DNA of 64,000 bases from Candidatus Solibacter sp. (GTDB lineage Bacteria > Acidobacteriota > Terriglobia > Terriglobales > Acidobacteriaceae): NCBI GenBank assembly GCA_035501655.1, contig DATJVU010000033.1, positions 298,770 to 362,769 on the forward strand, given 5' to 3'. Below, piece by piece: positions 3,339-53,861 of this stretch. The translations under genes and the position numbers were made by a program. The stretch's first letter is position 1; each line of letters opens with the position of its first letter. The notes beneath the pieces are model-generated. The model did no database searches and was not told the origin of the DNA. It saw only the letters and a program-made list of their open reading frames with translations.

Positions 3339-3394
3339 GATTCATGTCGGACAGCCGCTGTCAGTTGTCCGGTCGAGAAGTTCGACGGCTGCAT

Positions 3395-3856
3395 TCACGG
3401 CGAGGGCACCCACTTCACCGCAATCTTCGCGTTCGCCAGCAAGCCGCCCACTATCCCTTTAGTTCGGCGAATTGCCACTCCATCCTGTTCTGACGCGCGA
3501 ACGCCATTTTCCGCGGTCGCCACCACCCGTCCATACGGCCAGTTCGAAGCCGGCAGCTTTGCCAGCGCCGGTAACAACTCATCCGGCTTCAACTCAATTT
3601 CAGCGTTGTCGGCGAAATCGTAGAGCACGACATCATTCGTCCGTACCATGATGTAGGGATTGCGCCACTGCTTCATATTAGTAATGCGCTCGTACCGGGC
3701 AGCGTCGGCAGAGGGAATTGCCTGGAGCAAAGTCGCAGGATCAGGAGCGCTTGGCGCCTTCGGTTGCGAAGAGCAGCCGCTCAGAACGAAGAGAAAAAGA
3801 AGCGCCGAAACCAGCACACAGCCCGGAGATCGAGCCTTTCCCGGTCGAAACATCAC
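3395..3856 (-). CDS. hypothetical lipoprotein
   Basis: 153 aa. Signal peptide with lipobox LLFLFVLSGCSS. No family recognised. Confidence 0.6.
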   Translation of the reverse strand: MMFRPGKARSPGCVLVSALLFLFVLSGCSSQPKAPSAPDPATLLQAIPSADAARYERITNMKQWRNPYIMVRTNDVVLYDFADNAEIELKPDELLPALAKLPASNWPYGRVVATAENGVRASEQDGVAIRRTKGIVGGLLANAKIAVKWVPSP

Positions 3857-4202: not shown

Positions 4203-4311
4203 GTCATCCCGAACGTCCACGTTTTTTCCAGCGGACGGAGGGATCTCCCCCTAAGTGCCCATTGGGGGAGATCCCTTGCTCCGCCTGAAGAACGGCTCTG
4301 CTCGGGATGAC
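4203..4311. repeat. inverted pair of GTCAT-family repeats (GTCATCCCGA..GGGATCTCCCC)
   Basis: Plus copy at 4203-4250 and reverse copy at 4265-4311, separated by 14 nt. Could fold as one long hairpin. Confidence 0.75.
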
Positions 4312-4386
4312 GGTAGCTACTCCCAATCAAGTCCTTGCGATTCAACCAAGTCCGTGCCAAATCCGCGCAAATCCGTGGCCAAGGTT

Positions 4387-5292
4387 TTATCGGCCCATAG
4401 CGCGTTTGCGAGCCAACACGGTTTCGAGACCGGCGCGGGTCTCTTTCGGCAGATGATACGACTCCGCATCCGACGGATACTGATGCGACTTCACATCCGC
4501 CCGAAATGCCTGCACCGCTTGCGTAATCACCGCCGCCGCGTCTCCATATCGCCGCACGAATTTCGCCGGCGGCCCAAAAGTCAGGTTCACGATGTCGTGA
4601 AACACCAGCACCTGGCCGTCGCACTCCGGGCCGGCGCCAATGCCGATGGTCGGCGCGCTCACCTCCGCCGTGATCATGGCCGCCACTTCGCGCGGAATCC
4701 CTTCCAGATACAGGCACGCCACACCCGCGCGATCCAGCGCCACAGCATCGCGCATCAGCTGTTCAATGCCTGCAAGATTCTTGCCCTGCACCTTGTATCC
4801 GCCCATCACATTGACCGACTGCGGCGTCAGCCCGATGTGCCCGGCGACCGGAATCTCGGCGTCGATAATCTGGCGAATCAGGTCGGCGCGCTTCTCGCCG
4901 CCTTCCATCTTCACCGCTTCCGCGCCGCCTTCTTTCACAAAGCGCAACGCATTGTCTATAGCGTTTTGGGGGTTAGACTGATAAGACCCATAAGGCATGT
5001 CCGCCACCAGCAGCGCATTCTTCACCCCGCGCCGCACGGCTTTGACATGATGCAGCATCTCGTCCATCGTGACCGAGAGCGTATTCTCGTAGCCCAGCAT
5101 GGTCTGCGCCAACGAATCGCCGACAAGAACCATCTCGACTCCGGCCTCATCGACAAGGCGCGCAGCGGAATAGTCGTAAGCGGTGACGCAAGTGATGGGA
5201 TCGTGCTGGAGTTTCTGTTCCCGCAGAGACGCGGTAGTGGTTTTCTGCCCGTGTTCGTCGAGACGACGAACACCAATCGGCGTGAGACTCAT
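4387..5292 (-). CDS. panB: 3-methyl-2-oxobutanoate hydroxymethyltransferase
   Basis: ORF 4387..5340. TAYDYSAARLVDEAGVEMVLVGDSL is PanB-like. Start set to ATG 5292, preceded by GGAGGAAAC. Confidence 0.95.
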   Translation of the reverse strand: MSLTPIGVRRLDEHGQKTTTASLREQKLQHDPITCVTAYDYSAARLVDEAGVEMVLVGDSLAQTMLGYENTLSVTMDEMLHHVKAVRRGVKNALLVADMPYGSYQSNPQNAIDNALRFVKEGGAEAVKMEGGEKRADLIRQIIDAEIPVAGHIGLTPQSVNVMGGYKVQGKNLAGIEQLMRDAVALDRAGVACLYLEGIPREVAAMITAEVSAPTIGIGAGPECDGQVLVFHDIVNLTFGPPAKFVRRYGDAAAVITQAVQAFRADVKSHQYPSDAESYHLPKETRAGLETVLARKRAMGR

Positions 5293-5501
5293 GTTTCCTC
5301 CAGTGCCCCTCCAGCCCAGCCGGATAGAGCCTGTCAACACTCATCATATTTTACTCCGAAGATACTTGTGGGCGCGCCGAAAAAGATTAGCCCAGCTGCC
5401 TTAAGCTAACCGATTGTCTTATTTAGATTTGGCCGCCTCGGGATCTAGGTAAGGCATATACTCAGTTGTCTTACTCATTTTGTTTAGGTAAAATAGTAAC
5501 C

Positions 5502-5759
5502 ATGCCGTCTTACCAAGCCACGATTAGCTCCAAGGGGCAGGTGGTAGTTCCTGCTGAGCTCCGCAAGCGTTTTGGACTTAAAAAGGGGACTCGAGCCATG
5601 TGGAGAGAAGATCGAGGCCAGCTCGTACTCACCTCCTTCGAGCGCATCCTCGACGAAGTCCAGGGATTTTTGAAGCCGCGTCCAGGCGAACCTTCAGCGT
5701 TTGAAGAATCGCTTGCCGAGCGCGAACGGCAACGCAAGCGCGAGCGGGAAGAAGAATAG
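5502..5759 (+). CDS. vapB: AbrB/SpoVT-family antitoxin (VapB-like)
   Basis: MPSYQATISSKGQVVVPAELRKRFGL is a typical SpoVT/AbrB swapped-hairpin N-terminus. Its stop overlaps the start of the PIN gene. Confidence 0.8.
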   Translation: MPSYQATISSKGQVVVPAELRKRFGLKKGTRAMWREDRGQLVLTSFERILDEVQGFLKPRPGEPSAFEESLAERERQRKREREEE

Positions 5760-8865: not shown

Positions 8866-10179
8866 CTACTTCTTCACTGCGGCAAATGCGTCCTTCGACG
8901 CTGCAATGGTGCGCTGCACATCGTCGTCAGTATGTGCTGCTCCCAGAAACGCAGCTTCATACTGCGAAGGAGGCAAATAGACTCCCGCATCCAGCATGAC
9001 ACGGAAAAACTTCCCGAACGCAGCCGTATCAGACTTCGAAGCCGAATCCCAATCCGTGACCGGCCCGTTGTTAAAGAACCAGGTAAACATCGAGCCCACG
9101 CGATTCGCGGTCAGCGTTACTCCCGCATCCTTCGCCGCTGCGGCAACACCAGCCACCAAATCAGCGCTCAACTTTTCCAACCGCGGATAAATCTCTCCCT
9201 TGCGATCGCGCAACTGCTTCAGCATCGCGCATCCAGCAGCCATCGCCAGCGGATTGCCCGACAACGTCCCTGCCTGATACATCGGGCCGAGCGGCGCGAC
9301 CAGATCCATGATCTCCTTGGGACCACCGTAAGCGCCAACCGGCAAACCTCCGCCGATAATTTTTCCCAGCGTCGTCAAATCCGGTTTGATGTTGTACAAC
9401 TCCTGCGCTCCCCCGTGAGCCACGCGAAATCCCGTCATCACTTCGTCAAAAATCAGCACCGCGCGCTCACGCTCAGTCAGCAACCGCAAGCCAACGAGAT
9501 AATCGTCGGCCGCCGGCACGCATCCCATGTTGCCCACGACCGGCTCCACGATCACGCACGCAATCTGATGCTTGTATTTCGAGAAGGCGTGCTCCACCGC
9601 CGAAAGATTGTTAAAGGGCAGCGCCACCGTGAACTGAATGAATTCATCCGGAACCCCCGCCGATCCCGGAATCCCCAGCGTCGCCACGCCCGAGCCAGCT
9701 TTCACCAGCAGCGCATCTGCATGCCCGTGATAGCAGCCTTCAAACTTCACAATGTATTTTCGTTTTGTGTGGGTGCGGGCCAGCCGGATCGCCGACATCG
9801 TAGCTTCCGTCCCTGAACTGACGAAGCGCACCTTCTCCATGCTGGGGAATGCGCCAATCACCAGCTCTGCAAGATCGGCCTCCGACGGCGTCGACGCGCC
9901 GAAGCTGGTTCCGTTGCAAGCCGCGGCCACAATCGCATCGAGCACTCCCGGCTCAGCATGGCCGAGAATCAGCGGCCCCCACGATCCCACATAATCGATG
10001 TACTCATTCTCGTCCGCATCCCAAATGTGCGATCCTTTGCCGCGCACAATGAAGGGCGCATCGCCACCTACCGAGCGAAATGCCCGCACCGGAGAGTTCA
10101 CTCCTCCCGGAATCAAGCTCTCCGCGCGCTGTTGCAGCCGCCGCGACTGTTCAGTTTTTCGCGAAGTTGTGGAAGGCAT
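8866..10179 (-). CDS. hemL: glutamate-1-semialdehyde 2,1-aminomutase
   Basis: 437 aa. [10 protein letters not shown], class-III aminotransferase body and [18 protein letters not shown] (PLP lysine). Confidence 0.95.
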
Positions 10180-10371: not shown

Positions 10372-10410
10372 AGGACAGTCTCGGGGGCTCCGGACTGTCC
10401 TTTTTGAATT
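10372..10410 (+). terminator. intrinsic terminator-like hairpin with no annotated upstream plus-strand gene
   Basis: AGGACAGTC..GACTGTCCT stem (plus inner GC pairs) followed by TTTTTGAATTTTT. The reverse strand has no T-run. Confidence 0.5.
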
Positions 10411-10513
10411 TTTGATTGATGATTTTTGATGGATGATTGAAACCCACCCGGGTCCGGCTGCGCGAATAGACCCGCTTTTCAATCCACAATCAAAAATCAT
10501 CAATCAAAAATTC
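10406..10513. repeat. 108-bp palindromic MITE-like element with perfect 25-bp terminal inverted repeats
   Basis: GAATTTTTGATTGATGATTTTTGAT at 10406-10430 is the exact reverse complement of 10489-10513. A related TTGATTGATGATT motif occurs at 32861-32900. Confidence 0.85.
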
Positions 10514-11250: not shown

Positions 11251-11354
11251 AACAATGGAGCCGCGGACGCATTTCCTCCGCGGAGCGAGCGCCGAAACTC
11301 TCAGTCCTTAAATCCTCGCTCTTCCTGGGCGGCCGAATGCGTCCGCGGCTCCAG

Positions 11355-18997: not shown

Positions 18998-19080
18998 CCA
19001 AAGCCGCGAAGCGGCAAAAGAATGCAGCCCACGGCGCAAGCCGTGGGTATGAGAAAGACAAGGAACAGCCCCGAAGGGGC
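18998..19080 (-). repeat. double-hairpin repeat (CCCACGGC..GCCGTGGG plus GCCCC..GGGGC)
   Basis: Approximate reverse complement of 50438-50524, sharing the core GGCAAAAGAATGCAGCCCACGGCGCAAGCCGTGGGT. Confidence 0.8.
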
Positions 19081-20442: not shown

Positions 20443-20606
20443 CCCATTTCGGGAATTGGGCATCACGGAACCGGGAAGGGCACGAGTTTTACTCGTGCCG
20501 AAAGAGCATCGACAACAAGAACCGGCTTTAGCCGCTGCGGGCGTGCTCACTCGCGGCAGCCCGTCAGAAAAATCGTGTAAACGTCCCGTCTGTCCCCATG
20601 TTTTCT

Positions 20607-26021: not shown

Positions 26022-26078
26022 AATGCTGGAGGACCTTTCAACTGGCTGATTGCCGACGGCTGAGTGCTGACTGCTTCT

Positions 26079-28895
26079 ATGCCCCACGAACTCCCAAAAG
26101 CTTATGAGCCGGGCGCGATTGAAGCGCGCTGGGCTGAGTACTGGATCAAAGAGAAACTTTTTTCCGTCGCTACGCCTCCGGCTGACGCCGGGGACGCGGG
26201 CGGGGGCGCCCGCGCCACATCTGCGTCCGCACAACCTGTGTTTTCGCTGCTGCTGCCGCCGCCGAATGTGACTGGCAATCTGCATATGGGGCACATGTTC
26301 GAGCAGACACAGATGGACATTATTGTGCGCTGGCATCGGATGCGGGGATTTTTGACGTTGTGGCTTCCGGGCACCGACCATGCGGGCATTGCGACGCAAT
26401 TGATGGTGGAGCGGCAACTGGCGTCGGAAGGCAAGAAGCGCCGCGACCTGGGGCGCGAGAAATTTATTGAGCGCGTGTGGGAGTGGAAGAAGAAGTACGG
26501 CGGAAATATCACCGACCAGATGAAGCGGCTGGGCGCGTCGGTCGACTGGGATCGCGAATATTTCACGATGGATGAAAACTTGTCGCGGGCGGTGCGCGAA
26601 GTTTTTGTCCGGCTGTATGAAGAAGGGCTGATCTATCGCGGGAAGTACATCGTGAACTGGTGCCCGCGCTGCGAGACGGCGATCTCCGATCTCGAAGTGA
26701 AGCATGAGGATGTGCCGGGGAAGCTGTGGGAGATTCGTTATCCCGTGATCGGGACGCCGGCGGATAAGCCAGAGTTTATTACTGTCGCTACCACGCGGCC
26801 GGAGACGATGCTGGGCGATACGGCTATCGCGGTGAATATAAGAGACGAGCGCTACACGCATCTGCACGGCAAGAAAGTTTTGCTGCCGCTGATGGAGCGG
26901 GAGATTCCGATCATCACCGACGAACTGGCGCAGCCGGAGTTTGGCACGGGCGCGGTGAAGGTGACGCCGGCGCATGATCCCAATGACTTTCAGGCTGGAC
27001 TGCGCAACAACCTGCCGCAGATTGAAGTGATGGACGAGAACGCCCGCATGAATCAGAACGCGGGCAAGTATGCCGGGCTGGATCGCTACGAAGCTCGCAA
27101 GCAGGTGCTCGCCGATTTGGAGGCAGGGAATTTTTTAGTTGGGACGAAAGATCACACGCTGCCACTCGGCAAGTGCGATCGCTGCGCCACGGTGGTTGAG
27201 CCGCGGCTGTCGACGCAGTGGTTTATCAAGATTGCGCCCATGGCGAAACGCGCCGCCGACGCGGTCCGCAGCGGCGAGATTACTATCGCGCCAGAAAACA
27301 ATCAGCAAATTTATCTGAACTGGATGGACAACATCCACGACTGGTGCATCTCCCGCCAACTCTGGTGGGGACATCGGGTGCCGGCTTGGCATTGTGCTTG
27401 TGGGGAGATTGTGGTGGCGCGCGAGGCTCCGGCTGCGTGTGGGAAGTGCGGTGGGGCGGTGGAGCAGGATGCGGATGTGCTGGATACGTGGTTTTCTTCG
27501 GGGTTGTTGCCGTTCACTACTTTGGGGTGGCCGGAGAAGACTCGCGATCTGGAGGTTTTTTATCCGACGGCGCTGATGATTACCGGGTTTGACATTTTGT
27601 TTTTCTGGCTGGCGCGGATGATCATGTTCGGCTGCCATTTTATGCGGGGGCATGAGCAGGATCCGGCGATTAAGGCGTCTAGCGGATGGAGTGAGCGCAA
27701 GGATGACGCGGTGCCGTTTCGGCGGGTCTACATTCATGCTTTGGTGCGGGATGCGGACCGGCAGAAGATGTCGAAGACTAAGGGGAATGTGGTCGATCCG
27801 CTGGACATTATTGCTCGCTTTGGAACCGACGCGACTCGGTTTACGCTTGCGGCTATGGCTGCGCCGGGAACCGATATTGCGTTTAACGAGAGTCGCACGG
27901 ATGGGTATCGTGCTTTTGCTAACAAGATTTGGAATGCGGCGCGGTTCATGTTTATGAATGTGGACCGGATCGCGGACCGATCTCCGTGGACTCCGATTAA
28001 GGCAGATTCCGAAATCCTGCATGTTGGTGTTGGTGGTGTTAAGACGGTTGCTCTCGAAGACCGCTGGATTCTTTCGCGATTCAACCGCGTTGCAGCCGAC
28101 GTGAACGATGCGTTGGCGACTTATCGTTTTCACGAAGCGGCGAATCGCATCTACGATTTTTTCTGGGGCGAATTTTGCGACTGGTACTTAGAGTTGATCA
28201 AGCCGCGGCTTATGAACGAAGGGGGCTCTGCCAGGGCTGAAGCTAGCGTTGCGTGTTCTAATCTCGTCAACTTGTTTGAGTCATCGCTGCGCCTTCTGCA
28301 CCCGATCATGCCGTTTATTACGGAAGAAATCTGGCATGCGATGCAAGAGAATAAAACTTCAATCAAGTCCATCGCGTTGACGGCTTATCCGCAGGCCGAT
28401 GAAAAGCAATTTGATCTGGCCGCTGAGACCGAGATGGCGATTTTGCAGGATCTGATCGTGAGCGTTCGGAACTTGCGCGCGGAATTGAAAGTCGAAACCA
28501 AGGCCAAGGTGCCGATCGAAATTTTCGCACACGAGCCCGCGATTCGCAGCCTGATTGAGCAGAACCGCGGCGCGGTGGAGCGGCTAGCTAACGTTGAAAG
28601 TATCGCGTTTGCAGGGGGATCGTTGACCAGCAAGGCTGGCGCGCGCAGCACGGCGCGCTTCGACGTGCATGTAATCTATGAGCGCAAGATTGATGTTGCG
28701 GCTGAGTGCGAGCGGTTGAAGAAAGAGCTGGAGAGAATTGAGAAGGGGATGACGAACGGGCAGAAGCAGCTTAGCAACGAAGGCTTTTTGGCAAAGGCTC
28801 CGGCTGCGATTGTGGAGAACCTGCGCAAGCAGCATCAGGAGTTGGTTGTTTTGCAGGAGAAAACTTTGAGCAAGATGAAGGAGTTGGGTTGCTGA
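26079..28895 (+). CDS. valS: valine--tRNA ligase
   Basis: ORF 26064..28895. [13 protein letters not shown] (HIGH), KMSKTKGN (KMSKS) and a C-terminal coiled coil. ATG 26079 preferred. Confidence 0.97.
26193..26222 (+). repeat. REP-like hairpin embedded in frame in valS (encodes [10 protein letters not shown])
   Basis: Identical 30-mer to the intergenic 24664-24693. Lies in the variable N-terminal linker before PPPNVTG. Confidence 0.8.
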
Positions 28896-28981: not shown

Positions 28982-29232
28982 AGGTTGGGGAGAGTTACTT
29001 TACGGATTTATGAAGGCATTTCATAAAGAAACTGAAGTTAGAACCCGGACTGCCCTCGGGGGCTAAAAACTGGGCGGGTTTAACGCGACTTACGGCGCGG
29101 CTTGAAGCCGCGCCCTTTCAAAACTAATGCGGAATCAGGCTTTTCCTCAGCTTGTGGAACTCGCGCATTTTTTTCGGATCGATTTGTGAGATAAATTCTG
29201 AGAACTGGCCACCGGCCACTGATCACTGCTTT

Positions 29233-47678: not shown

Positions 47679-48234
47679 TGTGGTGGCGGGCGACTCGCCC
47701 GCGCAGTCAAGCAGCAGCAACCAACGCAGCGTCCCACCAAAGCCAGCGACATAAGTCCCAACGGTCAGCCAGTCGGGCCCGCACCGGATTCTGCAAAATG
47801 TAATCGACTTTCCCTCGCAAGCACTCGCATCCGCGCAGCACATGATCAAATGACTCGTCCTGCCAGACACGGCCGGTGCGTCCGAGAGCTTCGTTAATGC
47901 GATGCGCCGATTCGCTCTTGATGGTTCGAGTGATCTCGGGAATCGAGATCAGGCCTTTCGCGTCGCTAAGAGGGAGACAAATCAAGTGCACGTGATCGGG
48001 CATGACCACGGCCGCGTATAGGGTGTATTTGCGCCCGTTGGCCCTGAGGCAGGATTCTAAGGCCAGGGTTCGGGCGACGTCTGGCAGATGCCACCTTTGC
48101 CAAGTTGAATATGTGATGAATAGAGATCGATTTTCTTTTTGATAGTGCGGAAGATAGCGGCGGTAGTGATACTTTCTCTGCACTCAAAGCAGAGTAGCAC
48201 CGAAAGGCGCGCGGGCGAGTCGCCCGCGCCCACA
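47679..48234 (-). mobile_element. RAYT unit: REP-associated tyrosine transposase gene flanked by inverted REP hairpins
   Basis: GCGCGGGCGAGTCGCCCGC occurs on the plus strand at 48209-48227 and on the minus strand at 47686-47704, bracketing the gene. Confidence 0.8.
47707..48183 (-). CDS. REP-associated tyrosine transposase (IS200/IS605 Y1-like, RAYT)
   Basis: 158 aa. YRRYLPHY, HUH motif PDHVHLICLP, WQDESFDHVLR, catalytic-Tyr region VDYILQNPVRARLA. GTG start. Confidence 0.85.
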   Translation of the reverse strand: MQRKYHYRRYLPHYQKENRSLFITYSTWQRWHLPDVARTLALESCLRANGRKYTLYAAVVMPDHVHLICLPLSDAKGLISIPEITRTIKSESAHRINEALGRTGRVWQDESFDHVLRGCECLRGKVDYILQNPVRARLADRWDLCRWLWWDAALVAAA

Positions 48235-49703: not shown

Positions 49704-49789
49704 CAGTGGTCAGTGGCCGGTGGTCAGTGGTCAGTCATCAGCTCGGAAGTTCGTTGCTGACCACTGATCACTGGCCACCAGCCACTCAC
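49704..49789. repeat. about 86-bp imperfect palindrome of CAGTGGTCAGTGG-type repeats between hslV and hslU
   Basis: Left CAGTGGTCAGTGGCCGGTGGTCAGTGGTCAG, right CTGACCACTGATCACTGGCCACCAGCCACTCAC. Related motifs at 6194-6222 and 29205-29228. Confidence 0.75.
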
Positions 49790-52646: not shown

Positions 52647-53861
52647 ATGCGGAAGTTCTGGGACAATTCGAGCGGCGGAGTGGGGCGTGCAGACGAGACG
52701 TCCACCGCTCCACGTCTTGTTCCCGCGACGCTGCAGATCGGCGGTGTGACTATCTCGCCCGCGACCGTGCTCGCGCCTATGGCCGGCGTCACCGACACGG
52801 TCTTTCGCCGCTTCATCCGCAACCTGGGTGGATGCGGGCTGATCATGACCGAGTTCACCTCGGCCGATGGCGTCCTGCGCAAAAAAGACCAGAAGGCGAA
52901 GCGCTACCTGCATTTCTATGAGGACGAGCATCCGATCTCGGCTCAACTCTTCGGCAGCGATCCCTTTGTGATGGCGGAAGCCGCGCGGATGGTCGAGGGA
53001 CTCGGCTTCGATCTTGTCGACCTGAATCTCGGGTGTCCTGCGAAAAAAGTGGTGAAGTGCAATGGAGGCTCAGGCCTGCTGCGCGACCTGCCGGCGATCG
53101 GAAAGATCTTCGAGTCAGTGCGGGCAGCGGTAAAGATTCCGTTTACGGTCAAGTTCCGCGCGGGCTGGAGCGATAGCGAAATTGTCTGCGTGGAATTGGC
53201 GCGCATGGCCGAATCCTGCGGACTGGCTGCGGTGGCATTGCATGCGCGTACGCGCGAGCAAGGCTATAGCGGCGCTGCGCGGTGGGAATGGATCGCAGCC
53301 GTAAAAGATGCGGTGCAGATTCCGGTCATCGGCAACGGCGACATTCGCTCGCCGGAAGACGCTTGCGCTATGGTGACGCAGACCGGTTGCGATGCGGTGA
53401 TGATTGGGCGCATGGCGCCGTCGAATCCATGGATTTTTCGGCAGATTGAGCAGTATTGCTCGGGCATGGCCGCTGGACATGTAGGCACAGCCGCCCTCAG
53501 CTGTCCGGGCCGCACACCCGATTCGTTTCAGCCGAATGCCCTGCAGACATCGGGATCAGTCGAGCTTTGCTCGACCGGACAGCCGGGGGCGGCTGTCCCT
53601 ACATCAGAACCTTCCTACGATCATCCCTCCGAGTTCGATCGCTACGAGATGATCCGCACGTACTTCAAGATGCTGATTGAAGAAGAGTTGCCCGACGCGG
53701 TGGGCAAGATGAAGCAGTTCGCCTCGTGGTTTACCCATGGCGTGCCGGGCGGCGCCGGGTTGCGCAAAGAAATCTATGAATCGAAGAGTGCGCCCGAGAT
53801 TCTTTCGCGCGTGGAAGACTTCTTCGAGGCGCGCATCGGAGCACTCGCGTTGCAGCCGTAA
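52647..53861 (+). CDS. tRNA-dihydrouridine synthase (Dus family) carrying a 42-codon palindromic insertion
   Basis: ORF 52611..53861. LAPMAGVTD, DLNLGCPAKKV, HARTREQ and GNGDI motifs. ATG 52647. Confidence 0.9.
   Translation: MRKFWDNSSGGVGRADETSTAPRLVPATLQIGGVTISPATVLAPMAGVTDTVFRRFIRNLGGCGLIMTEFTSADGVLRKKDQKAKRYLHFYEDEHPISAQLFGSDPFVMAEAARMVEGLGFDLVDLNLGCPAKKVVKCNGGSGLLRDLPAIGKIFESVRAAVKIPFTVKFRAGWSDSEIVCVELARMAESCGLAAVALHARTREQGYSGAARWEWIAAVKDAVQIPVIGNGDIRSPEDACAMVTQTGCDAVMIGRMAPSNPWIFRQIEQYCSGMAAGHVGTAALSCPGRTPDSFQPNALQTSGSVELCSTGQPGAAVPTSEPSYDHPSEFDRYEMIRTYFKMLIEEELPDAVGKMKQFASWFTHGVPGGAGLRKEIYESKSAPEILSRVEDFFEARIGALALQP
53479..53604. repeat. 126-bp element with 30-bp terminal inverted repeats (27/30), in frame inside the Dus gene
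   Basis: ATGTAGGCACAGCCGCCCTCAGCTGTCCGG ... CCGGACAGCCGGGGGCGGCTGTCCCTACAT. The right arm contains the hairpin GGACAGCCG-GGGG-CGGCTGTCC. Confidence 0.75.

Follow-up and report, generated by a model that had tools for sequence, protein, structure and literature searches.

How does a long palindromic repeat come to lie in frame inside a housekeeping gene, and what keeps it there? The question is raised by a 126-bp segment of dusB, a tRNA-dihydrouridine synthase (Dus) gene, in a 64,000-nucleotide stretch of a Candidatus Solibacter sp. genome (assembly GCA_035501655.1, contig DATJVU010000033.1, positions 298,770 to 362,769 of the forward strand). This whole stretch is referred to below as the window, and positions are those of the window unless another contig is named. 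The in-frame palindrome, reported in a first-pass annotation made from the sequence, is confirmed here. The segment is very probably a non-autonomous repeat of the repetitive extragenic palindromic (REP) type, or of the type formed by REP doublets able to fold into a hairpin (REPIN). It belongs to a family, F1, that is associated with a REP-associated tyrosine transposase (RAYT), and it occupies, in frame, the linker that joins the two DusB domains.

Anatomy of the element

A GTAG-type REP is expected to be a short (20-40 nt), GC-rich, imperfect palindrome with GT(A/G)G at one end, and a doublet is expected to pair its two arms in a single long hairpin. Both properties were found, in a layout that resembles REPINs and bacterial interspersed mosaic elements (BIMEs).

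52647..53861, plus strand: dusB, the host gene (404 aa); TIGR00737 at 315 bits (cutoff 293.3), Pfam Dus match over aa 42-271, frame intact on both sides of the insert
53479..53604, plus strand: REP doublet (REPIN/BIME-like) within the limits first annotated; reversed relative to most orthologous copies
53481..53506, plus strand: left REP, GTAGGCACAGCCGCCCTCAGCTGTCC; GTAG head followed by a degenerate hairpin
53506..53521, plus strand: relic of a small inner hairpin, recognized by alignment; family consensus TCGGGCCTTCGGCCCGA, 3-nt deletion
53522..53558, plus strand: spacer, homologous by alignment, as its reverse complement, to the spacer of copies in the opposite orientation
53559..53575, plus strand: intact inner hairpin GTCGAGC-TTT-GCTCGAC; across the family 6/7 stem pairs are invariant, and it is paired in 99% of cells
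53577..53602, minus strand: right REP, reading GTAGGGACAGCCGCCCCCGGCTGTCC on the minus strand; GTAG head and perfect 9-bp stem, with the loop reading GGGG on the plus strand

The two 30-nt arms (53479-53508 and 53575-53604, 66 nt apart) are complementary at 27 of 30 positions (90%), and the recomputed positions and count are those of the first-pass annotation. This inverted repeat ranks second longest in the window. When the 22-nt hairpin GGACAGCCGCCCCCGGCTGTCC was searched at up to three mismatches, it matched the window twice, both times in the arms, and none of 100 shuffles gave two matches. Read directly, the right arm (53577-53598) forms the perfect 9-bp stem with a GGGG loop that had been described, and the hairpin of the left arm is degenerate, with two of nine stem pairs broken. 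The minimum free energy structure of the 126 nt is a single long hairpin, at -74.1 kcal/mol (z -7.2) when folded as RNA and -40.2 kcal/mol (z -5.9) when folded as DNA, and no shuffled 126-nt sequence folded as well in either form. The palindromic unit proper, GTAG...CTAC, spans 53481-53602 (122 nt), and the family consensus of 125 nt is longer by 3 nt. The arms of the window copy begin GTAGGCACAGCC... and GTAGGGACAGCC..., and those of its relatives begin GTGGGGACAGCC.... In Rfam, no family reached its gathering score for the element; the sub-threshold matches were all to miRNA-precursor long-hairpin models (19-26 bits versus cutoffs of 80-90).

The reading frame is kept, and the encoded peptide is the one first translated. 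However, the element starts at codon position 2, and the codons of the peptide are those of 53478-53603.

Position in DusB

The Pfam Dus match ends at residue 271, which is also the limit up to which E. coli DusB (6EI9) can be aligned (IEQYC). We take the position after this residue, from what is known of Dus structures, to be the short linker that joins the TIM barrel to the C-terminal helical domain. In the alignment with the PDB sequence of T. maritima Dus (1VHN), residue 271 corresponds to residue 230 and residue 324 (YDHPS) to residue 235, and the linker comprises 52 residues in the window DusB versus 4 in 1VHN. The same alignment places the element at the junction of the two domains, as first proposed, but not directly after NPWIFRQIEQY, as seven residues (CSGMAAG) intervene. 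In an AlphaFold2 model built from a shallow, 31-sequence alignment, residues 274-328 form a low-confidence coil between helices 262-273 and 329-345. This coil is compatible with the surface loop that had been suggested, but the mean predicted local distance difference test score (pLDDT) of 52.6 makes the model too poor to use; because of this, no fold search was made, and the site was mapped from the PDB sequence alignments. The predicted tryptic peptide spanning the insert is TPDSFQPNALQTSGSVELCSTGQPGAAVPTSEPSYDHPSEFDR.

The nearest homologues (74-85% identical) come from Ca. Sulfotelmatobacter, Acidobacteriaceae and Terriglobia metagenome-assembled genomes; lengths of 400-450 aa, with additional residues in this linker, are found in nearly all of them. 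Dus genes that carry an F1 doublet were compared with one another, eleven of them for core and overall figures and ten for codon-level figures. Their Dus cores show 94.6% protein identity against 45.8% identity at 4-fold degenerate sites, which indicates that dusB is under strong purifying selection.

F1 copies outside dusB

A mobile repeat is expected to recur at unrelated positions. F1 was followed through loci of related genomes (L001-L080) and metagenome contigs (higher L numbers, such as L159); P numbers below denote Dus homologue proteins. Reverse-complemented, the window element can be aligned over its full length to the 125-nt copies that sit in dusB of L001-L019; among these, the copy at 3829-3953 of L007 lies in the dus linker. 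Intergenic copies, which the first-pass annotation expected, were found with an nhmmer profile at full length in the related L048 (6814-6935, 122 nt) and L051 (4132-4256, 125 nt), and both align over their whole length with the window copy. The profile also picked up a dozen single units in the flanks of related loci. Within the window itself, exact and 3-mismatch searches gave no further arm copy, and nhmmer alone found one degenerate half.

3349..3395, plus strand: degenerate F1 half copy (REP and inner hairpin), intergenic; nhmmer E = 3e-4

The flanks of related loci (~560 kb) hold 12 F1 copies outside dus. Exact arm matches occur on at least 120 metagenome contigs, and none of the contigs listed encodes Dus. 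The F1 matches among these contigs number 132, comprising 23 doublets and 109 single or partial units, and spacer length varies between copies. Long open frames span 35 of the 132. Ten of these 35 were analyzed with Pfam, and in every case the frame is a genuine gene, with domains before and after the insert; the encoded hosts are Lhr helicase, UvrC, an enzyme of the aconitase family, an ATP-dependent DNA ligase, a GmhA-GmhB fusion (in its linker), LpxB, ParB, MnmE, a zinc-binding dehydrogenase and MnmG. When the peptide encoded by the insert was searched as a profile, it matched 148 protein clusters, nearly all of them short open reading frames (ORFs), and those inspected resemble translated repeats.

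No direct repeat of 3 nt or more, such as a target-site duplication would leave, was found in the flanks of 11 full copies; the only regularity there is CAT...ATG, which prolongs the palindrome. That the dus copies are uniformly 125 nt long was considered as proof of orthology and dropped, since the intergenic copies of L051 and L048 are about as long and have a similar spacer. In L006, L007 and L117, ATGG(G/A/T)CATT (W-A/T-V/L-A/P-E) follows just 3' of the right arm, in dus copies as well as in one intergenic copy. The repeat unit may be a longer mosaic than the 125-nt doublet.

Association with RAYT genes

Family REPs that flank a RAYT gene form the arrangement termed a REPtron, by which REP/RAYT systems are defined. 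In contig L159, a 150-aa ORF (9042-9491, minus strand) matches the RAYT model NF047646 at 85.6 bits (cutoff 80) and stands between an F1 REP (8937-8977) and an F1 doublet (9501-9691), with the outer copies mutually inverted. This contig is a related one and not part of the window's genome. The window has a REPtron of its own, with REPs of a sister type.

47684..48229, minus strand: window REPtron; RAYT gene at 47707-48183, NF047646 at 81.1 bits (cutoff 80), Pfam Y1_Tnp match; 4.5 kb upstream of dusB
47684-47704 and 48209-48229, inverted: sister-type REPs, GCGCGGGCGAGTCGCCCGC, flanking the window RAYT gene

A single REP of this sister type also lies in frame in valS (26064-28895), at 26196-26219 (GCGGGCG GGGG CGCCCGC GCCACA). 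Compared with T. thermophilus ValRS (1GAX), the product has an insertion of 15 residues directly ahead of the HIGH motif, and the REP encodes part of it. The parallel with valS drawn in the first-pass annotation therefore stands, with a repeat that belongs to a different subfamily from F1, namely the one that flanks the window RAYT gene.

Linker state across orthologues

If the element was inserted, some orthologues are expected to have an empty site. The segment between NPWIFRQI and MIRTYF was excised from 77 loci and from the window. Presence/absence polymorphism is indeed observed, in the form of filled, short and empty linkers, and the insertion that had been claimed is borne out both by this and by the four residues of 1VHN against 52 here. 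In five orthologues (L065, L069, L071, L075 and L078) the linker is empty, QYC and YD being separated by 4-5 residues. Linkers are short at about eleven loci, some with remnants, such as RAAVPW in L051, VAVPT in L044 and VGTAAP in L032. The other linkers are all filled in frame, with one or several of five palindromic families. The 42-residue segment is not conserved in distant Dus proteins; its ends are kept in close homologues and are not found in 1VHN. The families and the linker peptides they encode are:

F1 (the family of the window): VGTAALGCPVERSSTGF...SGLRPDGQPRAAVPT
F1b: GADAFVRPVERSST...TPDEGVRGS
F3: VGPGLRPGQAEQSSA...RPGQRPGPT
F2: REGHDFSRA...ALAAEG plus PSGAKA...GTAEAVPFP
F4: CHPEEPLFGDEGP

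F1, F1b and F3 share one architecture, a GT(A/G)GGG head, a 7-9-bp REP hairpin, a small hairpin, a spacer, a second small hairpin and an inverted REP, and their stem sequences differ. Composite states are seen in L004, L045, L017, L034 and L037. The linker states require no fewer than five independent insertions, within a target of ~60 bp.

Occupancy by the profiled families was scored at 64 scorable orthologous dusB loci:

Linker: 45/64 loci occupied (~70%)
300 nt after the stop codon: 8/64 loci occupied
200 nt before the start codon: 3/64 loci occupied
Last 45 nt of the coding sequence: 3/64 loci occupied
Rest of the coding sequence: 0/64 loci occupied

Families and both orientations are scattered over neighbor-joining trees of the Dus core; for example, L036 (F2) stands beside the empty L069. 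The cores are ~95% identical, which makes these trees weak, and no counts of gains, losses or inversions were taken from them.

Several further observations concern the same locus and families. The dus linker of L017 (3853-3977) holds a hybrid doublet with an F1b-type left arm and an F1-like right arm; hybrid REPINs were reported to be absent in P. fluorescens SBW25 (PMC3337134). L015 has three F1b elements (4241-4357, 4658-4775 and 5426-5544) in or just past the dus 3' end, and its tblastn Dus match continues to 4591, which may reflect a second in-frame insertion or a C-terminal extension. Near the N-terminus of the homologues P0006, P0018, P0056 and P0082, GGSARAT resembles a translated REP of the type that flanks the RAYT gene, as does CGAGAxARE at many Dus C-termini (alignment A1); if both are translated REPs, the two ends of dusB also absorb repeats. 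Elsewhere in the window, an F1b-like REP doublet (11256-11353; 18-nt perfect inverted arms, 62 nt apart) lies between two convergent genes. Intergenic copies of F2 (the GHDFSRA / GTAEAVPFP type), a family that fills the dusB linker in other genomes, are found at 20474-20539 and 29053-29119.

Orientation of the window copy

Orthologous F1 copies occur in two orientations at the same position in the gene, QYC plus 7 residues. The reverse complement of the commoner form (B), read in the same frame, gives VGTAALGCPSGQRPDSFPSN...VELRSTGQP.AAVPT, and this is the peptide of orientation A as found in the window, P0002, P0004, P0029, P0049 and P0114, spacer included. These alignments show the window copy as an exact flip of the commoner orientation, and a flip in place, between the inverted arms, would be the simplest reading. 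The window copy is also partly decayed, with its left REP and one inner hairpin degenerate, and flipping it back would now create a stop codon.

Conservation of hairpins and peptide

Among the F1-carrying dusB genes, identity within the element is 93.2% in stems, 76.6% in loops and 53.7% in the spacer (eleven genes). At 4-fold degenerate third positions the stems are 94.8% identical (n=601 comparisons), in contrast to the value of 45.8% in the Dus core, and the peptide encoded by the spacer is 34% identical between carriers. Local hairpins are paired in 95.7% of cells, with nine pairs changed on both sides. Judged from these comparisons, the constraint is on the DNA or RNA hairpins and not on the peptide, because synonymous sites in the stems are nearly frozen, changes are compensatory and the spacer peptide is variable. 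The ends of the peptide, HVGTAALGCP and GQPxAAVPT, are shared by most of 31 aligned homologues (~80-86% identical to the window DusB).

Long-range pairing between the arms was considered as the conserved structure and rejected. The arm hairpins are paired in 97.2% and 95.8% of cells, compared with 91.4% for arm-to-arm pairing, and a switch from A-U to G-C in L001, L004 and L017 keeps the local hairpin while breaking the arm-to-arm pair; few of the changes are independent. In L001 the same switch replaces Cys with Arg.

Stem conservation and compensatory variants are alike in intergenic and dusB copies. For this reason, selection at the site is not separable from insertion in the recent past or from evolution in concert with other copies.

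Origin and persistence of the insert

The following course of events is proposed. F1 is a unit of two inverted, GT(A/G)G-headed, GC-rich REP hairpins around a spacer of ~66 nt that carries small inner hairpins, and it is dispersed through the genomes of Ca. Sulfotelmatobacter-like Acidobacteriota. Its mobilization would be the work of a RAYT that takes hairpins of single-stranded DNA as substrate, as the analogy with the IS200/IS605 family suggests. One copy would have entered the short surface linker between TIM barrel and C-terminal helical domain, adding a number of nucleotides divisible by three and leaving the frame open. The insert would be translated as an extra loop of ~42-48 residues, presumably disordered and harmless, in an enzyme that remains under strong purifying selection. 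Recombination or template switching between the arms may have flipped it. Its persistence could reflect a deletion ratchet, copies being removable only by deletions that are precise and in frame. For the busy site, a permissive loop combined with this ratchet seems the favored account, to which insertion beside resident REPs may add.

Some points weigh against this account. The transposition event itself is not observed, and translation of the insert is deduced from the open frame. The notion of a disordered loop is weakly based, given the poor structural model. The exact limits of the insert are not fixable, as the linker is 47-48 residues longer than the empty site and 42 of these residues are encoded by the palindrome. 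Moreover, the only other F1 sequence in the window is the degenerate half copy, and the window RAYT gene is flanked by a different REP subfamily; as a result, neither F1 copy number nor a cognate RAYT is shown for the window's genome.

On another view, the element would be a domesticated, functional part of dusB, in which selection at the site keeps the hairpins. These might delay ribosomes between one domain and the next, adjust the stability of the mRNA or bind a RAYT or a host protein, and the loop itself might serve the enzyme. Such a role would fit the near-identity of synonymous sites in the stems, the compensatory changes that preserve the hairpins, the excess of linker occupancy over that past the stop codon and before the start codon, and the position of the element at QYC plus 7 residues in most F1 carriers. 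We nevertheless regard it as quite unlikely. Empty sites or deletion remnants in L069, L071, L075, L078, L051, L044 and L032 indicate that loss is tolerated, and the occurrence of five unrelated palindromic families and both orientations in one place argues against a specific sequence requirement. Stem conservation is a property of the family, as intergenic copies are equally conserved. The window copy is losing its left REP and one inner hairpin, and the spacer peptide has diverged widely between carriers. A related view, rather unlikely in our judgment, is that the DusB linker is a maintained docking site for REP-type hairpins that is refilled by whichever family is active and in which copies are flipped in place. 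Intragenic hairpins may then be selected, through a translation pause between domains or the binding of RAYT or host factors, or the site may be actively targeted. If true, dusB would hold an intragenic REPIN locus that has been domesticated and conserved throughout an entire clade.

Two other origins were weighed against a RAYT-associated REP doublet. [quoted passage not shown] This origin is highly improbable: the flanks of the 11 full copies have no direct repeat, only the palindromic CAT...ATG extension, each arm is itself a GT(A/G)G-headed REP hairpin, single units outnumber doublets (109 of the 132 matches among the contigs listed), and the gene that such REPs flank encodes a RAYT, not a DDE transposase. 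Thus, of the label MITE/BIME-like given in the first-pass annotation, the BIME half fits better than the MITE half, given the inverted GT(A/G)G REPs, the inner hairpins, a RAYT gene flanked by such REPs and no visible target-site duplication. The idea that this Dus clade has the segment as a native linker, selected at the protein level and only incidentally palindromic, is scarcely credible, even though its two peptide ends are common to most of the aligned homologues. The same DNA occurs in unrelated genes and between genes, and the intergenic copies already refute this origin. Orthologous sites are empty, the element is read in either orientation, the compensatory stem change in L001 alters a residue (Cys to Arg) and keeps the hairpin, and the synonymous sites of the stems are nearly frozen.

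As a RAYT-associated repeat, F1 has consequences beyond this gene. It suggests that the REP/RAYT system of soil Acidobacteriota writes hairpins into housekeeping coding sequence, in the manner of Rickettsia palindromic elements (RPEs), in free-living bacteria with large genomes. The linker is a natural experiment in itself, with empty sites, five families, both orientations and deletion remnants, and the series can be used to study loop tolerance and acquisition, REPIN persistence and selection on DNA or RNA structure inside genes. Inserts of this kind also inflate and fragment protein families and add spurious small ORFs to metagenome catalogues, as the protein clusters matched by the insert-peptide profile illustrate.

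Other repeats and RNA motifs in the window

Further features of the window are of other kinds. The Rfam Acido-Lenti-1 RNA motif was found twice (gathering cutoff 37):

19002-19047, minus strand: Acido-Lenti-1 RNA motif, 47.5 bits
50472-50517, plus strand: Acido-Lenti-1 RNA motif, 45.5 bits

Two long inverted repeats of other types, at 10406-10513 and 49705-49786, comprise one that is AT-rich with 37-nt arms and one built of GTGGTCA-like units.

Comparison with known systems

Mosaics of inverted REPs and other short conserved motifs are known from E. coli as BIMEs, and F1 is likewise a mosaic of inverted REPs and short conserved motifs. Unlike the dusB copy, BIMEs are extragenic; they bind IHF and gyrase.

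REPINs, and GTAG-type REPs mobilized by RAYTs, have been described by Bertels & Rainey 2011 (PMC3116915, PMC3337134) and Di Nocera et al. 2013 (PMC3733652). Like REPINs, F1 consists of two inverted REPs around a spacer, able to form a long hairpin, and has its GT(A/G)G head beside a GC-rich imperfect palindrome, as does the group I REP of SBW25, which begins GTGGGAGG (PMC3116915, PMC3337134). Singlets and doublets are both dispersed, with variable spacer length, and F1 REPs flank a ~450-bp HUH/Y1 transposase gene (L159). F1 differs in that published elements are overwhelmingly extragenic, whereas the dusB copy is in a coding frame, and in that a second, nearly invariant small hairpin, GTCGAGC-NNN-GCTCGAC, lies beside each REP. 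It also comes from Acidobacteriota, where its mobility is putative. From this phylum, TIR-flanked 'TIRYT' genes alone are recorded in the 2013 survey (PMC3733652). The motif GGGGWSAS of the TIRs of those acidobacterial genes was tried as a match; the F1 arm GGGGACAG fits it and F1b and F3 do not, and we treat this as a lead only.

The RPEs of Ogata et al. (2000, 2002; known here as cited in PMC3733652) are similar in being palindromic repeats of ~100-150 bp that lie in frame in housekeeping genes which are still functional, with many different genes hit in the same genomes. F1 behaves likewise, being in frame in dusB, with a core under purifying selection, and in the ten Pfam-confirmed genes. 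It differs in phylum, in its free-living rather than obligate intracellular hosts and in the visible link to a RAYT. The element is not filed as an RPE, and homology is not expected given GC content and phylum. We know of no RPE case in which one site has been colonized repeatedly by several families.

Di Nocera et al. 2013 also reported intragenic REP singlets and dimers that encode 20-30 or more residues in DNA repair, tRNA synthetase and tRNA-modifying genes (PMC3733652). Similar functions are seen among the hosts identified here (UvrC, DNA ligase, Lhr, ValRS, MnmE, MnmG and DusB). The supplementary lists of that study, in the portions drawn on here, contain neither dus genes nor Acidobacteria (PMC3733652), and a site shared between species was noted there only for recB in two Xanthomonas species, unlike the single linker filled in ~70% of 64 species-level genomes here. 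In the literature searched, no description of palindromic inserts in dus genes was found. In-frame palindromic repeats as such are already known, as REPINs, intragenic REPs and Rickettsia RPEs. What is new here is the F1 family, dusB as a host and the repeated colonization of one linker by several families in both orientations.

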